Source: an uncultured delta proteobacterium
Lineage (GTDB): Bacteria > Desulfobacterota > Binatia > Bin18
Length of the DNA stretch: 64,000 nucleotides
Assembly: GCA_963733195.1 (NCBI GenBank)
Contig: CAVTCR010000050.1
Coordinates: 32,001-96,000, forward strand
Direction of reading: 5' to 3'
Both the position numbers and the translations under genes were made by a program. Of the stretch, positions 29,345 to 42,152 are shown one piece after another. The notes under the pieces were generated by a model. It saw nothing but the letters and a program-made list of their open reading frames with translations. It did no database searches and was not told the DNA's origin. Position 1 is the stretch's first letter. Each line of letters opens with the position of its first letter.

Positions 29345-30736
29345 TTGATGACAAACTGTATAAATAGGTGGCATTTTTTTCAGACTATTCTCTCTCTCAC
29401 GTTTCTTTCTCTTTCTCCTCACCTGCTCCTAGCCGAAGAGAAAAACTGGCAAGTAACGCAGGAAACGCTCCCTAACGGTTTACAAGTCGTCATGCTTGAA
29501 GACCATCGTGCTCCGGTCGTTACTTTACAGGTGTGGTACAAAGTCGGGTCCCGCAATGAACGTACTGGCATTACCGGTATCTCTCACTTGCTCGAACACA
29601 TCATGTTTCGTGGTACGCCCAAGTACGGCCAGGGCGAATTTTCCCGCCTCGTACAAGATAAGGGAGGCTCGCACAATGCCTTCACCTCAGATGACCAAAC
29701 CGTCTACTTCGAGAATATAGCGTCTTCCCATCTCGACCTATTGCTTGAACTTGAAGCTGACCGGATGGCCAACCTTACCCTTGATGAAGCGAGTTTTTCT
29801 GCCGAACGCAAGATCGTTATGGAAGAGCGCCGCTTGCGTACCGCGGACGAGCCTGCCGCAGATTTGTATGAGCAAGTAAGTGCAGCGGCCTATACCGCTC
29901 ACCCGTACGGCTGGCCAGTCGTCGGCTGGATGAGTGATCTCGAAAACATGACGCTTGTTGACGTGAAAGCCTATAGACAGCTCTTCTATGCGCCAAGCAA
30001 CGCTATTCTTGTTGTTGCTGGGGATATTTCTCCAGAGACACTACTGCCAAAAATTAAAGCCACCTTTGGCGCAATTCCTGCCGGGAAGCCAACACCAAAA
30101 GTGACATCCGAAGAACCTCCACAGCGAGGAGAGCGTCGCGTAACGCTCAAGCGACCCGCTTCATTGCCGCTCTATGTTGCTGCCTATCATGTACCCAACC
30201 TCAAAAGCGAAGACAGTTTCCCCTTAGCACTGCTATCTGTAGTGCTTGCTGGGGGTCGGAGCTCACGCCTCCAATCCTCACTTGTAGAACGGAAAGCGCT
30301 CGCCCTTGGGGCCGATGCTAGTTATGACCAGTCGTCGCAAGACCCATCTCTCTTCACACTGTCAATGCGCCTCGCTCCTGGAAAACGCGTGCAAGATGCT
30401 GAACGTGCGCTCTATCAAGAAGTAGAACTATTGAAGAGGAAACGCGTCAGTCCAAAAGAACTGAATCGCGCCAAGAATTTAGTGGAATCATCGTTCGTCT
30501 ACGGCCAAGATTCGCTCTTCTATCGCGCCATGCAGCTGGGTGAGTACGCCTCGTTAGGCAACTGGGCACTCATTCACAAGTTCATCCCAGGAATCCGTGC
30601 GGTCTCTGCTGCCGACCTCCAGCGTGTGGCAAAGACTTATCTCGGTGAAGATAACCGTACTGTTGGGATACTGATTCCAGAAGGGAAACCAATTCGCGAA
30701 CGGCCGTCCAGTGCAGCGAGAGGACCTTTACATTAA
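29345..30736 (+). CDS. M16 (pitrilysin) zinc peptidase, catalytic subunit
   Basis: HLLEH inverted zincin motif, NAFT, ERRLR; signal peptide. Confidence 0.92.
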   Translation: MMTNCINRWHFFQTILSLTFLSLSPHLLLAEEKNWQVTQETLPNGLQVVMLEDHRAPVVTLQVWYKVGSRNERTGITGISHLLEHIMFRGTPKYGQGEFSRLVQDKGGSHNAFTSDDQTVYFENIASSHLDLLLELEADRMANLTLDEASFSAERKIVMEERRLRTADEPAADLYEQVSAAAYTAHPYGWPVVGWMSDLENMTLVDVKAYRQLFYAPSNAILVVAGDISPETLLPKIKATFGAIPAGKPTPKVTSEEPPQRGERRVTLKRPASLPLYVAAYHVPNLKSEDSFPLALLSVVLAGGRSSRLQSSLVERKALALGADASYDQSSQDPSLFTLSMRLAPGKRVQDAERALYQEVELLKRKRVSPKELNRAKNLVESSFVYGQDSLFYRAMQLGEYASLGNWALIHKFIPGIRAVSAADLQRVAKTYLGEDNRTVGILIPEGKPIRERPSSAARGPLH

Positions 30737-30787
30737 AGGCACTCACCAGCCCTTCCTCTCCATCCTGGAGACACGAAAGAATTAACG

Positions 30788-32110
30788 ATGAAACTCCGGC
30801 CATTTTATCTCGTGCTATTACTGCTCCTCTGTGCAGGGTCAATCCACGCGGCTCCTCTTGGCACCCGTACCATGCTCGATAACGGCGCTATTCTTTTGGT
30901 TGCCGAGCGTCCTAGTATTCCCATGGTTGTCATTAACATCTTGCTCAAGAGTGGAGCAGCAGCAGATCCAACTGGTAAAGAGGGCGTCGCCAACCTCACG
31001 GCAGAACTCTTAACACGTGGCACCAAGCAACACTCGGCTCAAGCTCTTGCGGAAGAGCTTGACTTTCTCGGTGCATCACTTGGAGTCGATGCCGACCTCG
31101 AAACCACCTCGATAACCTTGACAACCCTGACGAAGAATCTTTCAGCGTCGCTGACTTTGCTAGCTGAGGTTCTCACCTCTCCCACCTTCCCAGTTGCCGA
31201 GTTAGAAAAGAAACGTACAGAAATTACCGGAGGCTTGCAAAGCCGCGAGGAAGATCCCGGATGGGTCGCACAGCGAGCTTTTCTTGAAAAACTCTATCCA
31301 CAACATCCCTATGGGCGATTAGTCGAAGGGCAGACAGCAACACTCGCAGCATTAAAACGCGAAGATGTCGTCGCCTTCCATCAAACACATTATCGTCCCA
31401 ATAACGCAATTATTGCCATTGCTGGTGATATTACCCAAGAGCAATTCGAGAAGCTTCTTCGCACCCATTTTGTTGAATGGCAGCGTGGCGATATCCCGAA
31501 CCTCACCTGGCCAGAAGAGCAACAACCAGCGGCAATGCAACTAACCCTCGACAAGAAGGTTGCGCAAGCAAATGTCATCCTGGGTCATATTGGTGTTACA
31601 CGAGCCAATCCTGATTATTACACCGTACAGGTCATGAACTACATTCTCGGTGGCGGCGGTTTCGGGTCTCGTTTGATGGACAAGATTCGCGAAGAGCTCG
31701 CGCTTGTGTATTCTATCGGCAGCAGCTTTAGCGCTCGCAAACATGCCGGACCGTTTACCGTTGTCCTGCAGACCAAGAATGCCAGCACAACCCAAGCCGT
31801 AGAAGAATCACTAAAAGTGATCTCTCGCTTTATCGAAGAAGGACCGACAGAGAAAGAAGTCACCGAAGCAAAAGCATATTTGGTCAATAGCTTTCCGCTC
31901 CGTTTGGTCTCCAACCGTGACGTTGCTTCTCTGCTTCCAGTTCTCGAGTTTCACAACCTTGGACTCGATTATCCAGACCGCTATCCAACACTCATCGGAC
32001 AGATCACCCGCGAGCAGGTCCATACGGCAGCAAAAACTTACCTCCACTCAGATCACATACTGCAGGTGATCGTTGCAGACTTGACACAGGCTGGATTGGT
32101 AAAACAGTGA
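30788..32110 (+). CDS. M16 peptidase partner subunit (no HxxEH)
   Basis: ILGGGGFGSRL..IREE..LVY R/Y motif; follows the catalytic subunit. Confidence 0.9.
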   Translation: MKLRPFYLVLLLLLCAGSIHAAPLGTRTMLDNGAILLVAERPSIPMVVINILLKSGAAADPTGKEGVANLTAELLTRGTKQHSAQALAEELDFLGASLGVDADLETTSITLTTLTKNLSASLTLLAEVLTSPTFPVAELEKKRTEITGGLQSREEDPGWVAQRAFLEKLYPQHPYGRLVEGQTATLAALKREDVVAFHQTHYRPNNAIIAIAGDITQEQFEKLLRTHFVEWQRGDIPNLTWPEEQQPAAMQLTLDKKVAQANVILGHIGVTRANPDYYTVQVMNYILGGGGFGSRLMDKIREELALVYSIGSSFSARKHAGPFTVVLQTKNASTTQAVEESLKVISRFIEEGPTEKEVTEAKAYLVNSFPLRLVSNRDVASLLPVLEFHNLGLDYPDRYPTLIGQITREQVHTAAKTYLHSDHILQVIVADLTQAGLVKQ

Positions 32111-32113
32111 CAC

Positions 32114-32185
32114 AGGACTGAGCGCTGAGGACTGAGTGTAGAGCATTGGTTCGTTCCGCTCAGTCCTCGTTGCTCAATCCTCTCA
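32114..32185. repeat. Inverted heptamer-repeat hairpin (GGACTGA / TCAGTCC)
   Basis: ggactga gcgctga ggactga...ctcagtcctc...tcaatcctcagc between convergent genes. Confidence 0.7.
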
Positions 32186-32187
32186 GC

Positions 32188-33432
32188 TTACGGATAAATC
32201 CCGCGCAACTGCACTGCCTCAGCGACTCGATCGATGGCCAACACCTGGGCAGCAGTGCGCATATCAATGTTCTTTTCGTGTGATACGCGCAATATCTGGT
32301 TGAAACTCCGGACCATAATTTGCCGCAGCCGCTCGTTGATCTCGTCCTCTCCCCAAAAAAACGACTGCAGATCCTGAACCCACTCAAAATAAGAAACAGT
32401 CACACCGCCGGCATTGCAGAGGATATCCGGAATGACGAACACCCCGTTTTCTTGCAAAATCTGATCTGCCTCAGGAGTCAACGGGCCGTTAGCGCCTTCC
32501 GCAACGATTTTCGCCTTGACACGATGGGCATTGGCCGCGGTAATTTGATTCTCCATAGCGCAGGGCATGAGGACCTCACAATCGAGTTCGAGCAAATCGG
32601 GATTGCTGATCGCGTCTCCTTGCGGAAAGCCCCCAACCGATCCCCGTGTTGTCGTGTACGTACGCAAGGCTGTCAGATCGAGGCCGTGCGGATTATACAC
32701 ACCACCACTGACATCACTGACAGCGATCACCTTCGCTCCGCGCTCTTGAGCAAGATACGCAGCTGGTCCACCCACTTTGCCAAAGCCTTGCACTGCCACC
32801 CGTGTGTTCTCCAGCAAAAGATTTTTGCGCTTGAGTGCTTCAATCATCGTTATCACTACACCACGACCAGTGGCTTCCGCTCGCCCCAGAGAGCCACCAA
32901 TCGCCACAGGTTTTCCGGTGACAACAGCCGGAACTGAATACCCATGATGCATGGAATAGGTATCCATAATCCACGCCATTTCACGCTCACCTGTCCCAAT
33001 ATCAGGGGCAGGAATGTCACCCTGGGGGCTCATCAGCACACTGATCTCCGTAGCATAACGTCGTGTGAGTTTCTCTAATTCATGCACGGAAAGTTTCTTT
33101 GGCTCACATATTACCCCACCTTTTGCCCCACCGTAGGGAATGCCAACAACAGCACATTTCCATGTCATCCACATCGCCAAGGCACGGACTTCGTCCAGCG
33201 TCGTTGCCGGGTGATAGCGAATCCCGCCTTTGGTCGGGCCAAGTGCTGTATTGTGATGCACCCGGTAGCCAGTAAAAACACGGACGGACTTATCTTCCAT
33301 TTCGACCGGAAAATTCACGGTGATCTCACGCTTTGGCACCCGTAAATAGTCCGCAATCCCTGGTGGTAAGTTCAAATGTTGCAATGCGTTGTCAAACTGC
33401 CATAACGCCGTCTTATAAGCCGATTCCACCAT
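32188..33432 (-). CDS. gdhA: Glu/Leu/Phe/Val dehydrogenase (glutamate dehydrogenase)
   Basis: GPTKGGIRY, MTWKC, GGAKGG, DIPAPD, QGFGKVG, NAGGVTVSYFEWVQ motifs. Confidence 0.92.
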   Translation of the reverse strand: MVESAYKTALWQFDNALQHLNLPPGIADYLRVPKREITVNFPVEMEDKSVRVFTGYRVHHNTALGPTKGGIRYHPATTLDEVRALAMWMTWKCAVVGIPYGGAKGGVICEPKKLSVHELEKLTRRYATEISVLMSPQGDIPAPDIGTGEREMAWIMDTYSMHHGYSVPAVVTGKPVAIGGSLGRAEATGRGVVITMIEALKRKNLLLENTRVAVQGFGKVGGPAAYLAQERGAKVIAVSDVSGGVYNPHGLDLTALRTYTTTRGSVGGFPQGDAISNPDLLELDCEVLMPCAMENQITAANAHRVKAKIVAEGANGPLTPEADQILQENGVFVIPDILCNAGGVTVSYFEWVQDLQSFFWGEDEINERLRQIMVRSFNQILRVSHEKNIDMRTAAQVLAIDRVAEAVQLRGIYP

Positions 33433-33601
33433 TGCGTCCTCCTTCTTCCCCACAAATGCATTCAGCATGCTAGCATATTTTCCTCTGTAGGTCGCGCGTA
33501 GACGAGGGTGACTCCGGTACACCCCTCCTCCATTCGTTACCCTTTCGTCACCCTTGCTCATTCACGCATAGTGATATAGAGGTGGGGACCGTTCTATCGT
33601 C

Positions 33602-34081
33602 ATGAGGAGATGGACGATGAAGATGCGTCACGCAGCAAAAGCGAAAACCGCCGCGACTCCACCTGTCGATCAGTCCGTGCCAACGATGCAGGTTGCCGCC
33701 GTCGTCAAAGATGGACGCGTACAAGCTGAAGCTTTCGCTAGGCAGCCACGTAAACTTAGAATCCTACTCGATAATGCGATAGAAAAGGCCAAACAAGCTG
33801 ACAAAGGGGCATTTAAAGGTCTCTGGCCGTATCTCTTGGCCATGCTGCGTTTGGTTCGAGTCTTCTGTAGTGGAAAATATAAGAAGATCCCCTGGGAAAG
33901 CCTGATCTCGATCATCATCGCCATTGCCTACTTTGCGTCACCGTTAGATTTGATCCCGGACTTTCTTCCCGGGATCGGCTATCTTGATGATGCGATGATC
34001 GTGCGCTTTGTCTACCGTTCAGTGAGGACCGAACTTAATCGCTTCATGGAATGGGAAAGCGGCATTGAGCACTCCCTCTAG
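33602..34081 (+). CDS. YkvA / DUF1232-family membrane protein
   Basis: YFASPLDLIPDFLPGIGYLDD motif. Confidence 0.9.
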   Translation: MRRWTMKMRHAAKAKTAATPPVDQSVPTMQVAAVVKDGRVQAEAFARQPRKLRILLDNAIEKAKQADKGAFKGLWPYLLAMLRLVRVFCSGKYKKIPWESLISIIIAIAYFASPLDLIPDFLPGIGYLDDAMIVRFVYRSVRTELNRFMEWESGIEHSL

Positions 34082-34220
34082 CTGAAGAATATCTCTGTAG
34101 GCAATAAGGAACATACGACGGAAGAGCAGGCGTTCAGCATCCGTCTTATATCAGTAACAGACTCGGTAGAGCGACACGGCAGCGTTTCTATAGCTGTAGG
34201 CGGGCATAGCGCTGAAGGGA

Positions 34221-34438
34221 ATCTGACCGTGTGTTTGCCGAAAAAAGAGAGCAGGTCGATGATTTTACTTTTGACCGAGAGACGGCTAGAAGGTAGAACA
34301 TTGAGAGAAGCTAAGATATAGGAGCATAGGCGGAAGATTAGCCGAAGCGAGGAGAGGAGCAGTATGGGATCTGACCGCTTGTTTGCTGAAAAAAGAGAGC
34401 AGGTCGATGATTTTACTTTTGACCGAGAGACGGCCAGA
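34221..34438 (+). repeat. 70-bp direct repeat: intergenic copy (34221-34290) of the cmoA 5' coding sequence (34369-34438)
   Basis: 66/70 identical with a 47-nt exact core (gaaaaaagagagcaggtcgatgattttacttttgaccgagagacggc). Confidence 0.92.
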
Positions 34439-35086
34439 GTGTTCGACGATATGTTGAGCCGCTCGGTACCTTTCTACGCCGAGATCCAGCGAATGATCGC
34501 CGAAATCGCCTCTGATTTTGCTGTGGATAGCACGAATATCTATGATCTGGGGTGTTCACTGTGCACAACCTTCCTTAACCTCCAACAACTGGACAAGCAG
34601 GTGACCTTCATCGGCCTCGATGCCTCTCCAGATATGCTTGCACAGGCCGAGCAAAACCTCGCTGAACGCAATTTTTCACGCCCTTACCAACTTCTCTGTC
34701 AAAATCTTGAGCTGCCTTTCTCGCTGAATAACGCTTCAGTGGTGATTGTAAGCCTGATATTACAGTTTCTGCGTCCGTTGCGTCGTGAGCCCTTTATCCG
34801 CACGATCATCGACGGACTCAATGACAATGGCTGCTTGATCTTAATTGAAAAAGTCATCAACCCCGATAATCTGTTAAATCGTCTGTTTATCAAGTACTAC
34901 TATGAGTACAAAAAACGCAACGGCTATTCGGAGCTCGAAATTGCGCAAAAACGCGAAGCCTTAGAAAACGTCTTGATTCCCTACCGCCTTGAGGAAAACA
35001 TCGAACTCCTGCGACGGACGGGGTTCCGCAGCGTCGAAACTTTCTTTCGCTGGTACAACTTCTGCGGGATCGTGGCGATCAAATAA
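34364..35086 (+). CDS. cmoA: Carboxy-S-adenosyl-L-methionine synthase CmoA
   Basis: DFTFD...VFDDMLSRSVPFY, YDLGCS, LQFL, NGYSELEIAQKREALENV and WYNF are CmoA signatures. Confidence 0.88.
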   Translation: MGSDRLFAEKREQVDDFTFDRETARVFDDMLSRSVPFYAEIQRMIAEIASDFAVDSTNIYDLGCSLCTTFLNLQQLDKQVTFIGLDASPDMLAQAEQNLAERNFSRPYQLLCQNLELPFSLNNASVVIVSLILQFLRPLRREPFIRTIIDGLNDNGCLILIEKVINPDNLLNRLFIKYYYEYKKRNGYSELEIAQKREALENVLIPYRLEENIELLRRTGFRSVETFFRWYNFCGIVAIK

Positions 35087-35886
35087 TGAACACTGCCCCT
35101 TGGTCTTCTACTGATTCCTCAGCCTCACGACCGCCACAAACGACCATGCGTCGTTCACCGTGGCTCACGCGGCCTGGACATTTCTTCTTCGGCTATCGCG
35201 ATTATCTCATTCCGTTCACTTTTCTGGTCCTTAGCGTTACCACTGTTCCAGAGTTTCCTTTCGGGAGCGAGCGACTTGATCGTTGGCTCGACATAGGGGG
35301 GCTTCTGATTGCCGGCATTGGACAAGTGCTCAGGATCTGTGTCATCGGTTTTGCCTATATCAAACGCGGTGGACGCAATAAGCAGATCGCTGCGGATACG
35401 TTAGTACGCGAGGGGTTTTTCGCCCATTCACGGAATCCACTCTATCTGGGCAATTTCCTGATCATTTTGGGGTTGATCCTCATCGCCAACAATCGCTGGT
35501 GGTATTTCCTGGCGTTGCCTGGCTTCATCCTCATTTACACTGCGATCATTGCAGCAGAAGAAGATTTTCTGGCGAAGAGATTCGGCCAGGACTATGAAGA
35601 GTACTGCCGACAAGTGAACCGTCTTATCCCTAGTTTTACTGGCCTGCGGCAATCACTTGCACCATTTACATTTGCGTGGAAGCGAGTCATTCAAAAAGAG
35701 TACGGTAGTACGTTTACTTGGACATCGACGGCCCTCTTTCTGCTTATTTGGGAACGCTGGCAGCGGTTCGGCTATGCGGCGCAGAGCGCGCAGATCCACA
35801 CGTTGTTGTGGGGGTTCCCAATTTTAGGCGCTTTATACATTGTTGCACGGTGGATGAAAAAAACCGGACGGCTGGGTGGGTTGTAA
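35086..35886 (+). CDS. ICMT/PEMT-family membrane methyltransferase (LmtA-like)
   Basis: GFFAHSRNPLYLGN, EEDFLAKRFGQDYEEYC..VNR.IP; start overlaps the cmoA stop (TAATG). Confidence 0.85.
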   Translation: MNTAPWSSTDSSASRPPQTTMRRSPWLTRPGHFFFGYRDYLIPFTFLVLSVTTVPEFPFGSERLDRWLDIGGLLIAGIGQVLRICVIGFAYIKRGGRNKQIAADTLVREGFFAHSRNPLYLGNFLIILGLILIANNRWWYFLALPGFILIYTAIIAAEEDFLAKRFGQDYEEYCRQVNRLIPSFTGLRQSLAPFTFAWKRVIQKEYGSTFTWTSTALFLLIWERWQRFGYAAQSAQIHTLLWGFPILGALYIVARWMKKTGRLGGL

Positions 35887-37658
35887 ACCGCTCAGCCGCC
35901 CTACTCATACACTCCCGTCCCTTTCTGGTTGGGGTTGGTCTCGCGGCTCTTTGTGTGATCCTCTACGTTTGGGGACTCGGGGATGCCCCGTTCTACTCCA
36001 AAGGCGAACCGCGCGAAGCCACGGTGGTATGGGAAATCTATACGTCAGGAGAATGGATTCTCCCATTGCGCAATGGTCATATCACTCCCTCCAAGCCACC
36101 GTTGTTTCATTGGCTGGGTGCCCTGTTTTCTCTCGCCGGCGGAGGCATTTCAGAACTGACGGTTCGTCTGCCTTCAGCGCTATTAGCAACGACGGGAGTC
36201 CTCCTCACTTACGCAGTCGGCACCGCGTTATGGGGAGCTGAAGCGGGACTTGTCGCCGGGATAATTCTTGCAACGAGTTTCGAGTGGGCGCGGGCGGCCG
36301 TGTCGGCGCGGGTTGATATGACCCTCACAGTTTGTATGGTAGCCGCATTCTTGCTCTTCTTTGCTGTTTATCAACGCTTCCAGGTCTCTCGTTGGCAAGC
36401 GCTATTATTGTTCGCTTTGCTCGGATTGGCCACTCTTGCGAAAGGACCCGTCGGCGCGCTTCTCCCTGCCCTTACCGTTGGTATTTTTCTTATGCTCCAG
36501 GGGGATCTCGGATTCTTGCGGCAATTTCACCTCGTTCAAGGAAGTTTGGTTTTCGTGCTGATCGCCGGGTCCTGGTATGGTCTGGCGTTGTGGCAGGGTG
36601 GATATGACTTCTTCGCGAAGCAGGTCCTGAAGGAAAATCTCCTGCGTTTCTTTACCCCTGGTACCGCCGGAGCAGGACACGCGCACGGTTTTTCCTATCT
36701 CGTCTCCACCTTCGTCCTAGGTATGGCGCCGTGGAGCTTTTTCTTACCGCCAGTCATTGTGTTTCTGTATCAGTCTCGCTCGCAATGGCGCGAGAAGAGG
36801 CTCTTGTATTTCATCGTTTGGAGTCTCACCGTGTTCGGGTTCTATGCACTTTCCAGCAGCAAGCGGCCAGTCTATTTGTTGCCGCTCTATCCTGCGGTCG
36901 CGCTGCTTCTCGCTGTGTGGTGGCAAGAACTGCAAAAAGGAACGGTGACGCTTGCACGACCGTTCTCCTGGCTGGTGCGTGGGAGTGGCTATCTCAGCGT
37001 TGTCTTTGTCAGTGCTGTGATTCTCCTGGTCCTTGCTCAGCTCCTCGGGCATGATCCCCTCGTGTTGATTCGGCCGCTACTGACCTCTAAGCAACAACGA
37101 GAGATCCCTCCCTTATCCGTCATCGTCGCGGGTCATCGTCTCGCTTTTTGGCTATGGGTTACTGCGGCTACCTTTTCCACTTTTCTCCTCGCCAAAAGTC
37201 TCAAACAACAGCGTTGGAGTCAGGTCTTCACTGCGCTCGCGCTCTTCACGTGCAGCACGTTTCTCCTGGTGAACCAGACGCTCCGACGAGATGTGGCCAA
37301 AGGTCGCTCGTTACAATCGTTCATGACCCGGATCACGACACAGATTGGTCCGGTTCCGCTGTTTTTTTACCAAACCTTTGACAGCGGGGCATTATTCTAC
37401 GCCAATCGGCATATCCCGTTTTACGAAGGTTTTTCGTCTCCCCCAGAAGGACCATGTTACCTTTTGCTGTGGGAAGAAAAGTGGACCACACTTGCAGCGA
37501 AGGCTATCTCCGGTATCCGGGTAATCGACACGAGCGAAGGAACTGGCCCTAAAGGTAAACAACGCCTCGTGCTCGTGTTCGTTCCCGCTGGAACGACGAT
37601 TGCGTCAGAGGCCCCGCCACCCGTCAAAGACGAGGCGGATGTGGAAGACGCGCCATAA
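35880..37658 (+). CDS. ArnT/PMT-family (GT-C fold) membrane glycosyltransferase
   Basis: GEPREA, WILPLRNG, SKPPLFHWL, RLPSA, LAKGPVG, KRPVYLLPLYP. Start codon not clearly identifiable. Confidence 0.85.
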   Translation, partial: VVNRSAALLIHSRPFLVGVGLAALCVILYVWGLGDAPFYSKGEPREATVVWEIYTSGEWILPLRNGHITPSKPPLFHWLGALFSLAGGGISELTVRLPSALLATTGVLLTYAVGTALWGAEAGLVAGIILATSFEWARAAVSARVDMTLTVCMVAAFLLFFAVYQRFQVSRWQALLLFALLGLATLAKGPVGALLPALTVGIFLMLQGDLGFLRQFHLVQGSLVFVLIAGSWYGLALWQGGYDFFAKQVLKENLLRFFTPGTAGAGHAHGFSYLVSTFVLGMAPWSFFLPPVIVFLYQSRSQWREKRLLYFIVWSLTVFGFYALSSSKRPVYLLPLYPAVALLLAVWWQELQKGTVTLARPFSWLVRGSGYLSVVFVSAVILLVLAQLLGHDPLVLIRPLLTSKQQREIPPLSVIVAGHRLAFWLWVTAATFSTFLLAKSLKQQRWSQVFTALALFTCSTFLLVNQTLRRDVAKGRSLQSFMTRITTQIGPVPLFFYQTFDSGALFYANRHIPFYEGFSSPPEGPCYLLLWEEKWTTLAAKAISGIRVIDTSEGTGPKGKQRLVLVFVPAGTTIASEAPPPVKDEADVEDAP

Positions 37659-38229
37659 AAGAGCTAACGCACCGTGCGGAGCAATGACTCTGAGATTACG
37701 CAGCCTGGGTAAACTCCTGCAGGGCCGAAAGATTTTAAGGTTTCCTCGCCCCATGAACTGTAGGAGTTCACAGGAAGTTATCTGGGCGATCATCCCGCCT
37801 TTTTCTTCCCGCTCTGCCTTCGTGCTGCAAATTGCGCCATGCCTCTTCCCTCCTCGTGCGCGATACCAGGGGATGCCGCCAGACCTGTTGGCTCTCTTCC
37901 TGCTCGCTGGTGCCCCGAGGGCAATAACCCTTGCCGCTGCCATGTATATCGGCTTGCCGCGCCCGGAGACTAGCTTCACCTTGGTGGTAACGTTGCTCCT
38001 GGCCTATGTGTTGCTGAGCCTGGCGCCGTTGGTGTTGCTGCCGCACCGCCTGTTCTCTTGATCGTGGTATCCAAGTAATGCTAGCGAGAAAAAGCAAATC
38101 CGTAACATATTAGATGATCAGACTTGTATACGATGTACTTCCAGCCGAACATTACCAGGACACTACTACCCGATTTTTTGCCCGAACTGACGTTATTCAA
38201 GGCGACTTGGACATTTGGTGAGAGAGAAA

Positions 38230-39024
38230 CTATTTAACTAGCCCCTCAGGCATTCCAGTCGGAAACACATTCTTCAACTCCGCCTTAATTCGCCCGGCTC
38301 GATTGCCGGGATTGGGATGGGTACTGAAGAACTCTGGTTGTCTACCGCCTCCGGCTGATTTCTCAAGAACTTCCATTACACCAAGCAACGCACGCGGATC
38401 ATAGCCTGCTGACGCCATCCAGCGTAAGCCGAGACTATCCGATTCGAGCTCATCCTGTCGTCCGTATTTCATACCGATAAGATTCGCCACCAGCTGGGCC
38501 ATGTGTGCCCCCTGCATACTCGGGTCAGCGGCCATCACCGCAGCGCCAGTCAGCCCTTGTGTGAGTTTCTGTTTCGCTATGTGCTCGGCTGAATGACGAG
38601 CGACGACATGACCAATCTCGTGCCCCAGCACTCCAGCAAGTTCGCCTGGCGTACGTAATAGCTGTAGCAACGCTTCGGTAATGAAAATCTGTCCACCGGG
38701 TAATGCAAACGCATTGATCGTTCGCGTGTCGGCAAGTAGATGGAAATCGAACTTATAGGGCGATTTACTTGCCGGTGAGCGTTCAACAATTTGCTGGCCG
38801 ATTTTCTTCACTAACGCAGATGCTTGCTGGTTCTTCGATAAACCACCGAACTGTGCGGCCATTCGTGGTGCAGAATGCAATCCCAGCGCCGTCTCTTCTT
38901 CTATCGACATACTAATGCGCTGTTTTTCTCCAGTGACAGGATTGATACTCGACGAACTGTAGTAGGAAATAAGCGAAATAATAGCGAAGACGAGCCCAAT
39001 TAACAGACGAACCTTGATACTCAT
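38230..39024 (-). CDS. M48-family zinc metallopeptidase
   Basis: NAFALPGG, HEIGH, ELESD, FSTHP motifs. Confidence 0.92.
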   Translation of the reverse strand: MSIKVRLLIGLVFAIISLISYYSSSSINPVTGEKQRISMSIEEETALGLHSAPRMAAQFGGLSKNQQASALVKKIGQQIVERSPASKSPYKFDFHLLADTRTINAFALPGGQIFITEALLQLLRTPGELAGVLGHEIGHVVARHSAEHIAKQKLTQGLTGAAVMAADPSMQGAHMAQLVANLIGMKYGRQDELESDSLGLRWMASAGYDPRALLGVMEVLEKSAGGGRQPEFFSTHPNPGNRAGRIKAELKNVFPTGMPEGLVK

Positions 39025-39070
39025 CTCTACTCCTGACAAAGAACGAAAGCGTTACCCTCCCAACCGATTG

Positions 39071-39967
39071 TTACTCCACATGTTTCCACGCGTGGTACGA
39101 ACTTCGCACTAAAGGTCCCGCCTCGACATGGCGAAAACCCAACGCTAGAGCTTCGGTTCTCAACGTCACAAACTCATCGGGATGCACATATCTTTCAACC
39201 GGCAACTGCTCTGGCGAGGGACGCAAATACTGTCCGAGCGTGAGGATATCGCAGTCGACTGCACGCAAGTCACCAAATACGTGCAACAACTCTTCGTACG
39301 TCTCGCCGAGGCCTAGCATCAATCCCGTCTTAGTCTTGATGTCAGACCGTGTTTCCTTAACCTTCTGTAGCACACGCAGAGAACGCTCATATTTGGCACC
39401 AGGACGGACGCGTTTGTACAGGCGCGGGACGGTTTCCGTGTTGTGGTTATAAATCTCTATCGGTGACTGGGTGACCGTCGCCACTGCGGCTTCATTCCCT
39501 TGAAAGTCTGGAGTCAACACTTCAATCGTGCATTGGGGATTCAGGAGTTTCAGTTCTCGTGCAGTGGCAGCAAAGTGTTCTGCGCCGCCATCAGGAAGAT
39601 CATCGCGATTCACCGAGGTCACCACGATATGAGAAAGTCCCATTTTCAAAGCCGCCTCGGCAACGCGGTGTGGCTCTTCGGGATCAAGCGTTGCCACGCG
39701 ACCATGAGACACAGCACAAAATCGGCAGTTACGCGTACAGACATCACCCATCAGCATAAAGGTTGCGGTACCATGCCCCCAACATTCACCGATGTTAGGA
39801 CACTGCGCTTCTTGACACACCGTATTGAGCTTGAACGCGGACACGATCGCTTTCGTCTTCGTGTACACCGGTCCACTCGGCATCCGCACTTTGATCCAGT
39901 CGGGGTGTCGGCGAGCAATCGGCTCACGTCGCTCGCTCAGTTCAGGAGTGACTACATGTTCTGCCAT
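39071..39967 (-). CDS. lipA: Lipoyl synthase
   Basis: CQEAQCPNIGEC, CTRNCRFC, RSSY motifs. Confidence 0.97.
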   Translation of the reverse strand: MAEHVVTPELSERREPIARRHPDWIKVRMPSGPVYTKTKAIVSAFKLNTVCQEAQCPNIGECWGHGTATFMLMGDVCTRNCRFCAVSHGRVATLDPEEPHRVAEAALKMGLSHIVVTSVNRDDLPDGGAEHFAATARELKLLNPQCTIEVLTPDFQGNEAAVATVTQSPIEIYNHNTETVPRLYKRVRPGAKYERSLRVLQKVKETRSDIKTKTGLMLGLGETYEELLHVFGDLRAVDCDILTLGQYLRPSPEQLPVERYVHPDEFVTLRTEALALGFRHVEAGPLVRSSYHAWKHVE

Positions 39968-40590
39968 ACGATCTCCTTGTACCCGAAATAACGGGCAAAA
40001 GCGTCCACCACAAGAGGCTTTATAGTCTCAACGGTAACTGGTTGGCCAAGAACTGCCGTCAGCGAAGTCATCCTTACCCCCATAAGGCCGCACGGAACAA
40101 TATTCGCGAAGTAGCTCAGATCAGTAGCCACGTTCAAGGCGAACCCGTGATACGTGACCCAGTGCCGCACTCCAATGCCAATCGAGGCAATTTTCTCTTC
40201 TCCGACCCACACTCCAGTGAGCCCTTTCTGACAATGGGCACGTACCTGGTGATGGGCTAAGACCTCAACCAACACGGCTTCGATTCCACGCAGATATGCA
40301 TGAACATTGCGCCCAAGCGCACCCAAGTGCAGAATCGGATAGCCAACGAGTTGGCCGGGACCATGGTAGGTTACGTCGCCTCCACGTCCGACACGGTGAA
40401 TCGGCACCTCATGCGGCGTAAGCAGATTATTTTCATTGCCGCCGCGTCCAAGCGTAAACACTGCCGGATGCTCAAGCAGGAGAAGCGTGTCTTGGCATTC
40501 ACCACGATAGCGTTGCATCAGTAAGTCTTCTTGGAGCTGAAGCGCATGCGAATATTCGACGAGGCCAAGGTCGCGGCAAAAGAGAATCAT
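39952..40590 (-). CDS. lipB: Lipoyl(octanoyl) transferase
   Basis: EHPAVFTLG, RGGDVTYHGPGQLVGYP, KIASIG, PCG motifs. Confidence 0.95.
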   Translation of the reverse strand: MILFCRDLGLVEYSHALQLQEDLLMQRYRGECQDTLLLLEHPAVFTLGRGGNENNLLTPHEVPIHRVGRGGDVTYHGPGQLVGYPILHLGALGRNVHAYLRGIEAVLVEVLAHHQVRAHCQKGLTGVWVGEEKIASIGIGVRHWVTYHGFALNVATDLSYFANIVPCGLMGVRMTSLTAVLGQPVTVETIKPLVVDAFARYFGYKEIVWQNM

Positions 40591-40594
40591 TGCA

Positions 40595-40710
40595 GTAAAG
40601 AGTAAAGAGTTAAAAGTTAAGAGTGAAGAATTAAGAAGGCGAGAATGAAAACGGAGAGGGCTTGAATTTTTTCATTCTTCACTATTCACTCTAATTCTTA
40701 ATTTCATTCA
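40595..40710. repeat. Inverted heptamer-repeat hairpin (AGTTAAG-like / TTCACTC-like)
   Basis: gtaaaga gtaaaga gttaaaa gttaaga gtgaaga attaaga ... ttcattc ttcacta ttcactc taattc ttaatt. Confidence 0.75.
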
Positions 40711-40730
40711 GCCTCAATCTAACCGCAACC

Positions 40731-42152
40731 CTAAAAATTGATCCCTCTCCCCTCTGCACTGAGCGCTGCTTCCAGAATGGCTTCTGATAGCGTCGGATGC
40801 GCATGTACCGTGTTGCTAAGTTCCGCGGTCGTGGCTTCCAATGTCCGAGCTAAGCCAATCTCAGCAATGAGGTCAGTCGCTCCGTGTCCGATGATATGGC
40901 AACCCAAGACCTCCCCATATTGTTTATCGACAACGAGCTTTACAAAGCCTTCGTCATGGCCTTTGGCAATCGCCTTTCCTGAAGCCATAAACGGAAACTT
41001 GCCAATCGATACTTCATAGCCTTTCGCTTTGGCTTGTTCCTCAGTGAGGCCGATCACCGCGATTTCTGGCTGACAGTATACACAAGCAGGAATCTTGAGA
41101 TGATCAATCCCTTTCTCGCGCTTGCCCGCCATATGCTCAACGGCGGCAATACCTTCTTCCGAGGCCGCATGTGCGAGCAAGGGGGGGCCATTCACATCAC
41201 CAATCGCGTACACCGTATCACAGGCAGTCTGCATAAATTCATTCACTTTTATAAAGCCACGATCCAACTCGACACCAAGCGCTTCCAATCCGAGATCTAC
41301 GCTGAGTGGAACTCGTCCGACCGCAACTAACACTTTGTTCGCCGTGCGAGTCTTAATATCACCACTATTGTTGAGTGCGACCTCCACCCGCCCAGGGAAT
41401 TTTTCGATCCCGTGGTATTTCGTCCCGGTCAAAATTTCGATCCCTTGCTTCTTGAATGCCTTTTCTAGTTCTTGTGCAACTTCAGTATCGACACCAGGCA
41501 AGAGTTGTTTCTCCATTTCCACCATCGTCACGCGACTCCCGAACGCACTGTAGATGTAGGCAAATTCACAACCGATAGCACCACCGCCGACAATGAGAAT
41601 ATCTTTCGGTAACTCAGTATCGACCAAAGCTTCATAACTCGTGAGGATCTGTTTACCGTCTATCTCTAGACCTGGTAGAGTTCGTTCTTTTGAGCCGGTC
41701 GCAATAAGGATATGAGCGGCTTCAAGCTGGTGTGCCGCTTTCCCAGGCATCTCCACCACCACACGGTTCTTATTTTCTATACGACCAGTGCCGATAATCA
41801 GTTGCACCTTATTCTTACGGAGCAAAAACTCTACACCCTTGGCGAGTCGATCTGCTACTTCACGCGAGCGTTTGATAACCTGCGGATAATCAACAGACAA
41901 GCCATGAGCCTTAATGCCGTAGCGTTCTCCCTCTTTGAGATCTTCATACAGTTCAGCTGAGGTAAGAATCGCTTTTGAGGGAATACATCCCCAATTGAGA
42001 CACACTCCACCAGCTCGGTCTTTCTCGACAACGACGGTTTTCAAGCCTAGCTGCGCGGCACGAATTGCCGCTACATAACCACCTGGCCCTGCCCCTATCA
42101 CGACTAGATCGTATCGGTCAGTTTTGTCTCCGTGTAACATCTTGCCGTTCAT
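40731..42152 (-). CDS. lpdA: Dihydrolipoyl dehydrogenase (E3)
   Basis: GAGPGGY, GGVCLNWGCIPSK, GGGAIG, HAHPTLSE motifs. Confidence 0.96.
   Translation of the reverse strand: MNGKMLHGDKTDRYDLVVIGAGPGGYVAAIRAAQLGLKTVVVEKDRAGGVCLNWGCIPSKAILTSAELYEDLKEGERYGIKAHGLSVDYPQVIKRSREVADRLAKGVEFLLRKNKVQLIIGTGRIENKNRVVVEMPGKAAHQLEAAHILIATGSKERTLPGLEIDGKQILTSYEALVDTELPKDILIVGGGAIGCEFAYIYSAFGSRVTMVEMEKQLLPGVDTEVAQELEKAFKKQGIEILTGTKYHGIEKFPGRVEVALNNSGDIKTRTANKVLVAVGRVPLSVDLGLEALGVELDRGFIKVNEFMQTACDTVYAIGDVNGPPLLAHAASEEGIAAVEHMAGKREKGIDHLKIPACVYCQPEIAVIGLTEEQAKAKGYEVSIGKFPFMASGKAIAKGHDEGFVKLVVDKQYGEVLGCHIIGHGATDLIAEIGLARTLEATTAELSNTVHAHPTLSEAILEAALSAEGRGINF

Follow-up and report, generated by a model that had tools for sequence, protein, structure and literature searches.

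Conserved pairing of cmoA with the gene for an ICMT-fold membrane protein points to a putative carboxy-S-adenosylmethionine-dependent carboxymethyltransferase system of the bacterial membrane

In a 64,000-nucleotide stretch of the genome of an uncultured bacterium of the class Binatia (contig CAVTCR010000050.1 of assembly GCA_963733195.1, positions 32,001 to 96,000; hereafter, the window, in whose numbering coordinates are given), three open reading frames (ORFs) on the forward strand fill positions 34364-37658, each overlapping the next head to tail. The first (34364-35086) encodes CmoA, the synthase of carboxy-S-adenosylmethionine (Cx-SAM), of 240 amino acids; the second (35086-35886) encodes a 266-amino acid integral membrane protein with the fold of the isoprenylcysteine carboxyl methyltransferases (ICMT) and phosphatidylethanolamine N-methyltransferases (PEMT), hereafter, the ICMT-like protein; and the third (35850-37658, open from 35718) encodes an ArnT-like (PMT_2) membrane glycosyltransferase of the GT-C fold and is a lineage-specific part of the operon. 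Comparison of this locus with its counterparts in other genomes makes it quite probable that cmoA and the ICMT-like gene form a two-gene system in which the membrane protein would serve as a Cx-SAM-dependent carboxymethyltransferase. The evidence is comparative only and unusually coherent, combining the coupling of the two genes, its breadth across phyla, an either/or relationship with cmoB, the gene for the tRNA-modifying consumer of Cx-SAM, and both linkage and fusion to chorismate mutase.

The product of the first gene is CmoA, for which prephenate-dependent activity is predicted. It scores 234 bits against the CmoA equivalog model TIGR00740 (cut-off 193.3; 233.5 bits in the search of the whole genome) and aligns over its full length with the CmoA/YecO structures 1im8 (E-value 5e-48, residues 3-240) and 4gek (5e-43, residues 4-240). 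Among 47 CmoAs linked to ICMT-like genes, 39 columns are invariant, and the “QKRxALEN” block, which aligns with “QKRTALENV” of 1im8, shows little or no variation, K196, R197, E198, A199, L200, E201 and N202 being present in all. A conserved arginine, which we take to be Arg199 of the Escherichia coli enzyme, presumably binds the Cx-SAM carboxylate. The window cmoA is the only intact one in the genome. A second cmoA (G000:C82:32826-33772, reverse strand) is split over three frames, with TIGR00740 pieces of 81, 44 and 40 bits, and lies between genes for a polysaccharide deacetylase and a 313-amino acid ORF on one side and a class I methyltransferase, a GT4 glycosyltransferase, an AMP-binding enzyme and an LpxL-family lipid A acyltransferase on the other, with the start of the methyltransferase gene overlapping the end of the broken cmoA. 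This cluster, again of an envelope type, may be a second, decayed Cx-SAM pathway with a soluble consumer, or may reflect assembly errors.

The ICMT-like protein matches the Pfam PEMT family (PF04191) with 44.4 bits (cut-off 25) and falls under the cut-off of PF04140 (19.8 versus 24 bits). The initial reading of this DNA, made from the sequence alone (hereafter, the sequence-only reading), called it LmtA-like. This name is apt insofar as LmtA of Leptospira (TIGR04571) is the best curated-family match and is covered nearly completely (model positions 8-246 of 252), but the score of 106.6 bits is far under the family cut-off of 325; against the prokaryotic ICMT equivalog NF040696, the protein scores 51.1 bits (cut-off 160). 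The AlphaFold2 model is all-helical, with a mean confidence score (pLDDT, predicted local distance difference test) of 83.6, and its top Foldseek matches are the ICMT structures from Methanosarcina acetivorans (Ma-ICMT, 4a2n) and Tribolium (5v7p and 5vg9), with probabilities of 0.99-1.0 and weak E-values of 0.03-0.12; a profile search of the PDB likewise matched 5vg9 (E-value 2.9e-12), 5v7p and 4a2n.

The stop codon of cmoA (TAA, 35084-35086) and the ATG of the ICMT-like gene at 35086 share one A, giving a TAATG overlap of one nucleotide. The sequence-only reading had seen an intact cmoA overlapping the start of an ICMT-fold gene in this manner, and the ORF positions, the TIGR00740 match and the shared base all bear this out. 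Its recurrence in other genomes puts the arrangement far beyond what chance would produce. With an alignment of ICMT-like proteins, we scanned the GTDB species, each represented by one genome, confirmed 585 relatives and kept the best 80 loci, in which cmoA was called by tblastn with the window proteins if a match of at least 45% identity over at least 150 amino acids lay immediately upstream on the same strand. In 59 of the 80 loci, cmoA directly precedes the ICMT-like gene on the same strand; in two more (L041, L071) it is cut by the contig end, and in one (L056) it is truncated at the 5' end. Seven loci (L067, L073, L082, L089, L090, L096 and L104, from Massilia, Pseudoxanthomonas, Acidovorax and metagenome-assembled genomes of Burkholderiales and Leptospirales) instead contain a divergent, long-branch cmoA-like gene, the product of which is 28-35% identical to the window CmoA and, where scored, reaches 129-151 bits on TIGR00740, below the cut-off. 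The same divergent type is the only cmoA-like gene of a planctomycete (G090) that has cmoB, which suggests that this group, too, makes Cx-SAM.

The 80 records carry about 15 phylum labels, some of those on metagenome-assembled genomes being plainly unreliable; among them are Planctomycetota, Verrucomicrobiota, Acidobacteriota, Gemmatimonadota, Nitrospirota, Pseudomonadota, Bacteroidota, Armatimonadota, Eiseniibacteriota, Methylomirabilota and Binatota. Where a cmoA or cmoA-like gene is present (69 loci), the ICMT-like start codon overlaps the stop of cmoA by four nucleotides in 25 and by one nucleotide in 14 (39 together); 18 of the other junctions have a gap of 0-30 nucleotides, 7 a longer overlap and 3 a gap of 31-120 nucleotides, one is frameshifted and, in one, the cmoA-like gene is on the other strand. 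The family is large, with 465 cluster representatives (at 50% identity) matching the profile of cmoA-linked ICMT-like proteins at E-values up to 1e-30. Thus, of the cmoA-ICMT-arnT neighbourhood whose conservation the sequence-only reading had proposed to examine, the cmoA-ICMT pair is kept far beyond the relatives of this bacterium, whereas the ArnT-like gene lies outside the conserved core.

Several irregular forms of the pair were encountered. An apparent CmoA-ICMT fusion (P0001, 528 amino acids; chromosome of an Eisenbacteria member, L045, 4197-5792) was rejected because only the first part of cmoA shares the frame of the ICMT-like gene, the last 58 codons being out of frame, which indicates a frameshift and no real fusion; the second of the two longer homologues found in the fusion search, P0002, contains only ICMT/PEMT domains. 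In another genome (G182:C29:6139-12656), two copies of the pair lie 5 kb apart, and the ICMT-like gene is split in each. The frameshift in L045 and the split copies in G182 have the look of artefacts of sequencing or assembly, or else of recent decay. A database representative of 442 amino acids (P0126) joins an ICMT-like protein to a C-terminal, peptidoglycan-binding OmpA domain, a further hint of a role in the envelope.

No cmoB is present in the window, as the sequence-only reading stated, and this observation extends to the whole assembly (93% complete, 87 contigs), in which the best match to TIGR00452 reaches 30.6 bits (cut-off 275), as well as to the class, with none over the cut-off in 41 genomes (this one and 40 relatives). 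The same survey found cmoA over the cut-off in only 3 of the 41 genomes (G000, the window genome; G013; and G034), each time directly upstream of an ICMT-like gene; therefore, cmoA is not a housekeeping gene in this lineage and travels with the membrane protein gene. Among 30 genomes carrying the pair, cmoB exceeded the cut-off in two, both Gammaproteobacteria, and one Leptospirales genome yielded a sub-cut-off match of 224.5 bits. Exactly one cmoA or cmoA-like locus was detected in 29 of the 30; in the four genomes compared in this respect (G042, G046, G068 and G070), it is the copy adjacent to the ICMT-like gene. The partner CmoA exceeds the TIGR00740 cut-off in 23 of the 30 genomes.

Because the 80 loci had been chosen through the ICMT-like protein, a census was also made from the cmoA side. 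In 121 genomes drawn evenly from Planctomycetota, we searched for cmoA or cmoA-like genes at E-values up to 1e-30 and for ICMT-like genes at E-values up to 1e-20. Ten genomes have a cmoA or cmoA-like gene: six of these have cmoB over the cut-off (adjoining cmoA in four) and no ICMT-like match at this threshold, and the other four have an ICMT-like gene beside cmoA and no cmoB. In Verrucomicrobiota, 11 of 151 genomes have cmoA; 10 of them have cmoB and no ICMT-like gene, and the eleventh, the seed genome G064, has an ICMT-like gene and no cmoB. Thus, exactly one of the two partners accompanies cmoA in each of the 21 cmoA-bearing genomes of the two samples, as would be expected if two alternative consumers drew on one cofactor. 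The finding that the sequence-only reading had named as speaking against its proposal, namely, cmoB elsewhere in the genome together with unconserved linkage, came out the other way on both counts.

The third line of evidence concerns the supply of prephenate, the chorismate mutase product that CmoA needs (PMC10491745). In 12 loci, the gene immediately upstream of cmoA encodes a chorismate mutase (CM_2), often fused to 3-deoxy-D-arabino-heptulosonate 7-phosphate (DAHP) synthase. In seven of these (L040, L045, L050, L051, L056, L057 and L060), CM_2 is backed by Pfam; in L046, Pfam recognises the DAHP synthase domain only, and the chorismate mutase part of L046, L066, L075, L091 and L095 rests on tblastn. 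A related gene is located downstream of the pair in L068 and, in L083, beside an ICMT-like gene that has no cmoA. Independent evidence came from protein fusions: when a profile of 47 cmoA-linked ICMT-like proteins was compared with 1.84 billion cluster representatives and the 150 best matches were checked for domains, five of these (P0058, P0076, P0088, P0093 and P0097) proved to be ICMT-like proteins with a C-terminal chorismate mutase domain; on one metagenome contig, the P0058 fusion gene is followed by cmoA on the same strand. Such a fusion suggests that the function of the ICMT-like protein depends on Cx-SAM synthesis, given that no other use for the added domain is evident, and we regard these fusions as the strongest single argument that the ICMT-like protein itself would consume Cx-SAM. 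The proposal of the sequence-only reading, that the ICMT-fold enzyme may use Cx-SAM (in its view, on a lipid or glycolipid), thus gains support from the distribution of cmoB, the conserved linkage, and the chorismate mutase neighbours and fusions.

Phylogenetic analysis is compatible with this picture. In a quick IQ-TREE reconstruction of the ICMT-like proteins (91 rows after seven identical ones were dropped, L064 and L094 left out; branch support by the Shimodaira-Hasegawa-like approximate likelihood ratio test, SH-aLRT, only), rooted with six Binatia paralogues that adjoin GT-C genes and have no cmoA, all cmoA-linked proteins fall into one group of 71 rows (SH-aLRT 80), with an inner clade of 68 rows supported at 99. 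The window protein and those of G013 and G005 lie just outside this inner clade, and 14 homologues of the Binatia type without cmoA form an unresolved basal grade. In the CmoA tree (72 rows), 14 of the 16 CmoAs from genomes with cmoB belong to one clade (SH-aLRT 96), and the partner type changes 4 times compared with about 21 in shuffles; because related sequences share labels, this result shows clustering, not independent co-evolution.

We propose the following scenario. CmoA would convert S-adenosylmethionine (SAM) and prephenate into Cx-SAM in the cytoplasm. The active sites of ICMT and LmtA face the cytoplasm, and the ICMT-fold enzyme, oriented in the same way, would use Cx-SAM in place of SAM and carboxymethylate (+58 Da) a nucleophile on a lipid of the inner leaflet of the cytoplasmic membrane. 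Since Cx-SAM is cytoplasmic, carboxymethylation would have to occur there, before export. ArnT acts on the periplasmic side, and in this lineage, the ArnT-like GT-C enzyme might then decorate the same molecule after it is flipped to the periplasm. Both the role of the ICMT-fold protein as the Cx-SAM consumer and the lipid nature of the acceptor are inferred from the comparative data.

Several observations weigh against this scenario. First, close homologues of the ICMT-like protein do without cmoA: 9 of the 14 genomes of the class with an orthologue-level match (E-value up to 1e-50) have neither cmoA nor a remnant of it, the identity of such cmoA-less homologues being 44-53%; in G005 and G026, cmoA is reduced to a remnant of 30-33 codons next to an intact ICMT-like gene; and in G060, a chorismate mutase gene adjoins the ICMT-like gene with no cmoA found in the genome. 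Evidently, relatives of the enzyme function, or at least survive, with SAM alone, and because such homologues occur in the same class, use of Cx-SAM is not a property of the whole ICMT-like family. Second, the 80 loci, 11 of which have no cmoA, were selected by similarity to the ICMT-like protein, come mostly from metagenome-assembled genomes and include kin that are not independent; the window protein and its two companions join the linked group at an SH-aLRT of only 80 in a quick tree. Third, both gammaproteobacterial genomes with cmoB and the pair have a single cmoA, so that the either/or rule is not absolute. Fourth, only two columns separate cmoA-linked from unlinked proteins, Tyr91 versus Asn and Val107 versus Ile. 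The sequence-only reading had suggested modelling the cofactor pocket for a basic residue facing the carboxymethyl group, but the alignment of cmoA-linked proteins contains no basic residue specific to this clade for the Cx-SAM carboxylate. Arg94, in the loop adjoining Tyr91, is invariant but is also present in homologues from genomes without cmoA, and the loop (93-102) is modelled with a pLDDT below 50.

Tyr91 is found in 70 of the 71 linked proteins, in the context “A-Y-I-K/R-R-G-G”, and is replaced by Asn in all 14 unlinked ones, which have “E/D-N-I-R-R-G-G” with a one-residue insertion. CmoB is described as holding the carboxymethyl group with Lys91, Tyr200 and Arg315, and CmoX as using an arginine (PMC10491745, PMC12783734, PMC7496830), which makes a Tyr91 adjoining the invariant, though not clade-specific, Arg94 suggestive.

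One alternative fares better than the others, although we consider it unlikely. Under this alternative, the ICMT-fold enzyme would be an ordinary SAM-dependent methyltransferase of a lipid, as LmtA is, or would methyl-esterify a carboxymethyl group installed by another user of Cx-SAM, as CmoM does after CmoB, with cmoA located beside it through a shared pathway. ICMT proper methylates carboxyl groups, and the methyl donor of LmtA is SAM; the active-site columns of the linked proteins are nearly identical to those of homologues from cmoA-less genomes, with no basic residue gained; and in G005 and G026, the ICMT-like gene has outlasted cmoA. However, the neighbours vary among the loci and, among the neighbouring ORFs surveyed, include no conserved candidate for an alternative carboxymethyltransferase, and cmoB is not over the cut-off in 28 of the 30 carrier genomes. 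Furthermore, the chorismate mutase fusions tie the ICMT-like protein itself, not a neighbour, to prephenate, and in the two phylum samples each cmoA is accompanied by either cmoB or the ICMT-like gene, as alternative consumers would be.

Much less probable still is that the cmoA homologue encodes a conventional class I methyltransferase, or the maker of another SAM derivative, with the pair performing two methylations. This possibility is brought up by the Pfam results, which yield only generic methyltransferase domains for the window CmoA, and by the seven loci in which the divergent cmoA-like gene remains under the TIGR00740 cut-off. The window protein and most of the partners, however, exceed this equivalog cut-off, the alignment with solved CmoA structures extends over the full length, the “QKRxALEN” block is conserved, and CmoAs linked to ICMT-like genes are close relatives of those linked to cmoB on a single tree; moreover, linkage and fusion to chorismate mutase make sense only with a prephenate-dependent reaction. 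Finally, that cmoA still serves the modification of tRNA to uridine 5-oxyacetic acid (cmo5U) via an unrecognised transferase other than CmoB, so that its adjacency to the membrane protein gene is meaningless, is the least credible explanation: tRNA modification is the established role of Cx-SAM and the genome is only 93% complete, but adjacency with overlapping stop and start codons recurs over about 15 phylum labels, and cmoA, being missing from 38 of the 41 genomes of a class in which cmoB never exceeds the cut-off, does not have a housekeeping function in tRNA there.

Returning to Cx-SAM-dependent carboxymethylation by the ICMT-like protein, the gene neighbourhoods provide hints on the acceptor. 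The third gene of the operon encodes a GT-C/PMT_2 protein and not an ArnT orthologue: it scores 57.5 bits against PMT_2 (PF13231) and 85.6 bits against the ArnT model PRK13279 (cut-off 567), and matches the ArnT structure 5ezm with an E-value of 1.7e-19. The sequence-only reading had the ArnT/GT-C gene following without a gap; the gene does follow directly, but instead of abutting, the two genes overlap, because the first four in-frame start codons of the GT-C gene (35718, 35748, 35808 and 35850) all precede the ICMT-like stop at 35886. The true start is uncertain; a GTG at either 35850 or 35808 would retain the first transmembrane helix, for which G013 has an aligned counterpart. The three-gene order is the same in G013 and, with a cmoA remnant before the ICMT-like gene, in G005. 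Beyond these two closest relatives, an ArnT-like gene directly follows the pair in only 3-4 of the 80 loci; GT-C genes occur near the pair in nine loci, among which L035, L076 and L101 have one immediately downstream and L053 has one about 700 nucleotides away. The ArnT-like gene is lineage-specific. In six genomes (L029-L034; G002, G004, G021, G012, G017 and G003), a cmoA-less paralogue of the ICMT-like protein (32-36% identical) is paired with a GT-C gene (28-32%), and because these genomes have the pairing without cmoA, the association of ICMT-like and GT-C genes is older than the link to cmoA in this lineage. The window genome has an ICMT-like paralogue of its own (G000:C12:30930-31589), 34% identical to the window protein.

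Clustering of the neighbouring ORFs, Pfam searches with the first 134 of 358 of them and tblastn with seven chosen proteins, a survey that rarer shared neighbours may escape, revealed no general neighbour beyond cmoA and chorismate mutase, which argues for a common cellular acceptor. A minority of the loci have neighbours of an envelope type, namely, OmpR-type regulator/kinase pairs in 11 loci, MsbA-like ABC transporters, an MprF-like gene (L060) and efflux genes of the RND (resistance-nodulation-division) and OEP families. In Candidatus Brocadia carolinensis (L076, 428-10374), the pair lies within an arn-like locus, all on one strand, in the order OmpR-type regulator, kinase, ArnC-like GT2, LAB_N, cmoA, ICMT-like gene, two ArnT-like GT-C genes and an ArnB-like aminotransferase (595.9 bits versus a cut-off of 631). 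The window genome carries lpxC (250.7 bits, cut-off 187). Because LmtA is the nearest characterised homologue and the neighbours, where informative, are of the envelope type, a phosphate of lipid A (in Kdo2-lipid A, Kdo being 3-deoxy-D-manno-octulosonate) is, by analogy, the leading candidate for the acceptor, albeit a tentative one; the amine of a phospholipid or aminolipid and a polyprenyl phosphate-linked sugar are possible alternatives. A further point against a lipid phosphate acceptor is that its carboxymethylation would not lower the net negative charge, so that the usual rationale of lipid A modification fails.

It is instructive to compare this putative system with those already known. 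CmoA/CmoB of E. coli, which makes Cx-SAM itself and modifies position 34 of tRNA (cmo5U34), has the same first enzyme and the same two-cistron logic, synthase then consumer; the consumer in our case, however, is an integral membrane protein of the ICMT fold, unrelated to the Rossmann-fold CmoB, cmoB is missing, and the expected target is a lipid and not tRNA. Like this pair, cmoA and cmoB are reported to be adjacent and co-conserved (PMC4482062). LmtA, the O-methyltransferase of the 1-phosphate of Kdo2-lipid A in Leptospira, is the closest characterised family by profile and shares the fold and a membrane lipid substrate, with genes of lipid A-type modification in the context here and in Brocadia; unlike LmtA, the window protein is far under the family cut-off, and even the Leptospirales member of our set (L104) reaches only 104 bits. 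To our knowledge, LmtA uses SAM and is not paired with cmoA. ICMT/Ste14 and PEMT share with the window protein both the fold and a conserved cofactor region, “R-x-P-x-Y...EE”, and differ from it in that the latter has the extra “Y-I-K/R-R-G-G” loop and two further C-terminal helices. ArnT, the lipid A 4-amino-4-deoxy-L-arabinose transferase, resembles the product of the third gene in its GT-C fold and N-terminal half, and differs in the low score of the latter against the ArnT model and in the restriction of its tie with the pair to a few lineages.

The closest parallels in genome organisation come from other Cx-SAM pathways. In Synechococcus phage S-B43, a CmoA homologue feeds the adjacent CmoX, an enzyme other than CmoB that produces 5-carboxymethylcytosine in DNA and was likewise recognised through its genome neighbourhood; CmoX, however, is a soluble homologue of C5-cytosine methyltransferases in which an arginine contacts the carboxylate (PMC12783734), and an equivalent residue is not established in the ICMT-like protein. 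TglE/TglF of the 3-thiaglutamate pathway and MccS/MccB-CTD of a microcin C variant also combine CmoA homologues with dedicated carboxymethyltransferases (PMC10491745), but these are soluble Rossmann-type enzymes from narrow natural-product clusters, whereas the pair analysed here is membrane-bound and spread over many phyla. The four natural Cx-SAM consumers described in these sources, namely, CmoB, TglF and MccB-CTD (PMC10491745) and CmoX (PMC12783734), are all soluble, of the Rossmann type, and act on nucleic acids or peptides. Natural carboxymethyltransferases are characteristically encoded together with a CmoA homologue, and the ICMT-like gene shares this genomic part of their description. 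Cx-SAM pathways have been called “extremely rare in nature” in work on engineered Cx-SAM users (PMC7496830), and other acceptors of the carboxymethyl group have been said to “remain to be discovered” (PMC4482062). In the full-text literature searched, which leaves out most subscription journals so that an earlier mention elsewhere is possible, we found no paper that connects Cx-SAM with a lipid or with an enzyme of the ICMT/PEMT fold. On balance, we lean towards the view that the CmoA-paired ICMT-fold enzymes are a second, structurally unrelated lineage of natural carboxymethyltransferases, the first one embedded in the membrane, that would act on a bulk lipid of the envelope, with a lipid A phosphate as the most likely acceptor.

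The operon has the look of an accessory unit of patchy distribution at a site prone to recombination, judging from its absence in congeners, a break of synteny and a decayed copy of the cmoA 5' end. Searches of two further species of this genus, G002 (100% complete) and G001 (84% complete), found the block in neither. In G002, the genes of the left flank (glutamate dehydrogenase and DUF1232) and of the right flank (M48 peptidase, lipA and lipB) are on different contigs, which documents a synteny break but does not establish a clean insertion; in G013, the operon is located away from both flanks. The 80 nucleotides at 34211-34290 (forward strand) are a direct repeat, 90% identical to 34359-34438, that is, the first 75 nucleotides of cmoA and five nucleotides upstream; in this decayed partial duplicate, which lies 148 nucleotides before the genuine start, the ATG is changed to AAG and the frame closes after about 25 codons. 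Contigs of other assemblies break at this repeat, with raised depth there, and the duplicate, at the operon's edge, is probably a scar left by recombination. The flanking genes are of the housekeeping type: two M16 peptidases, an archaeal-type glutamate dehydrogenase and a DUF1232 protein on the left (29345-33561), and an M48 peptidase, lipA, lipB and lpdA on the right (38230-42152, reverse strand). A 153-amino acid ORF (37600-38061, forward strand) that overlaps the end of the GT-C gene has no match in Pfam or NCBIfam and is probably not a gene.

With regard to expression, a promoter and terminator scan of 33500-38400 gave counts no higher than those in shuffled sequences (5 versus 3.2 and 5 versus 5.2). 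Metatranscriptome contigs from two runs cover parts of cmoA and the first ~230 nucleotides of the ICMT-like gene, and one contig of 151 nucleotides, ~91% alike, spans the junction of the two. This is a weak hint of transcription across the junction, the contigs being of low depth and partly from relatives, and RNA libraries can hold DNA; the uncovered parts carry no information.

If the proposed activity is confirmed, Cx-SAM chemistry would extend to lipids, and a lipid head-group chemistry that is not yet described would be present under about 15 phylum labels. Bacterial CmoA would then have two alternative fates, with its product directed to tRNA via CmoB or to the membrane via the ICMT-like enzyme, which would explain the retention of cmoA in many bacteria that lack cmoB. 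The proposal predicts a new envelope modification that should be obvious by mass spectrometry as an increment of 58 Da, and it would provide a functional handle on a family that so far bears only generic automatic names, such as “methyltransferase family protein” or “isoprenylcysteine carboxylmethyltransferase family protein”.

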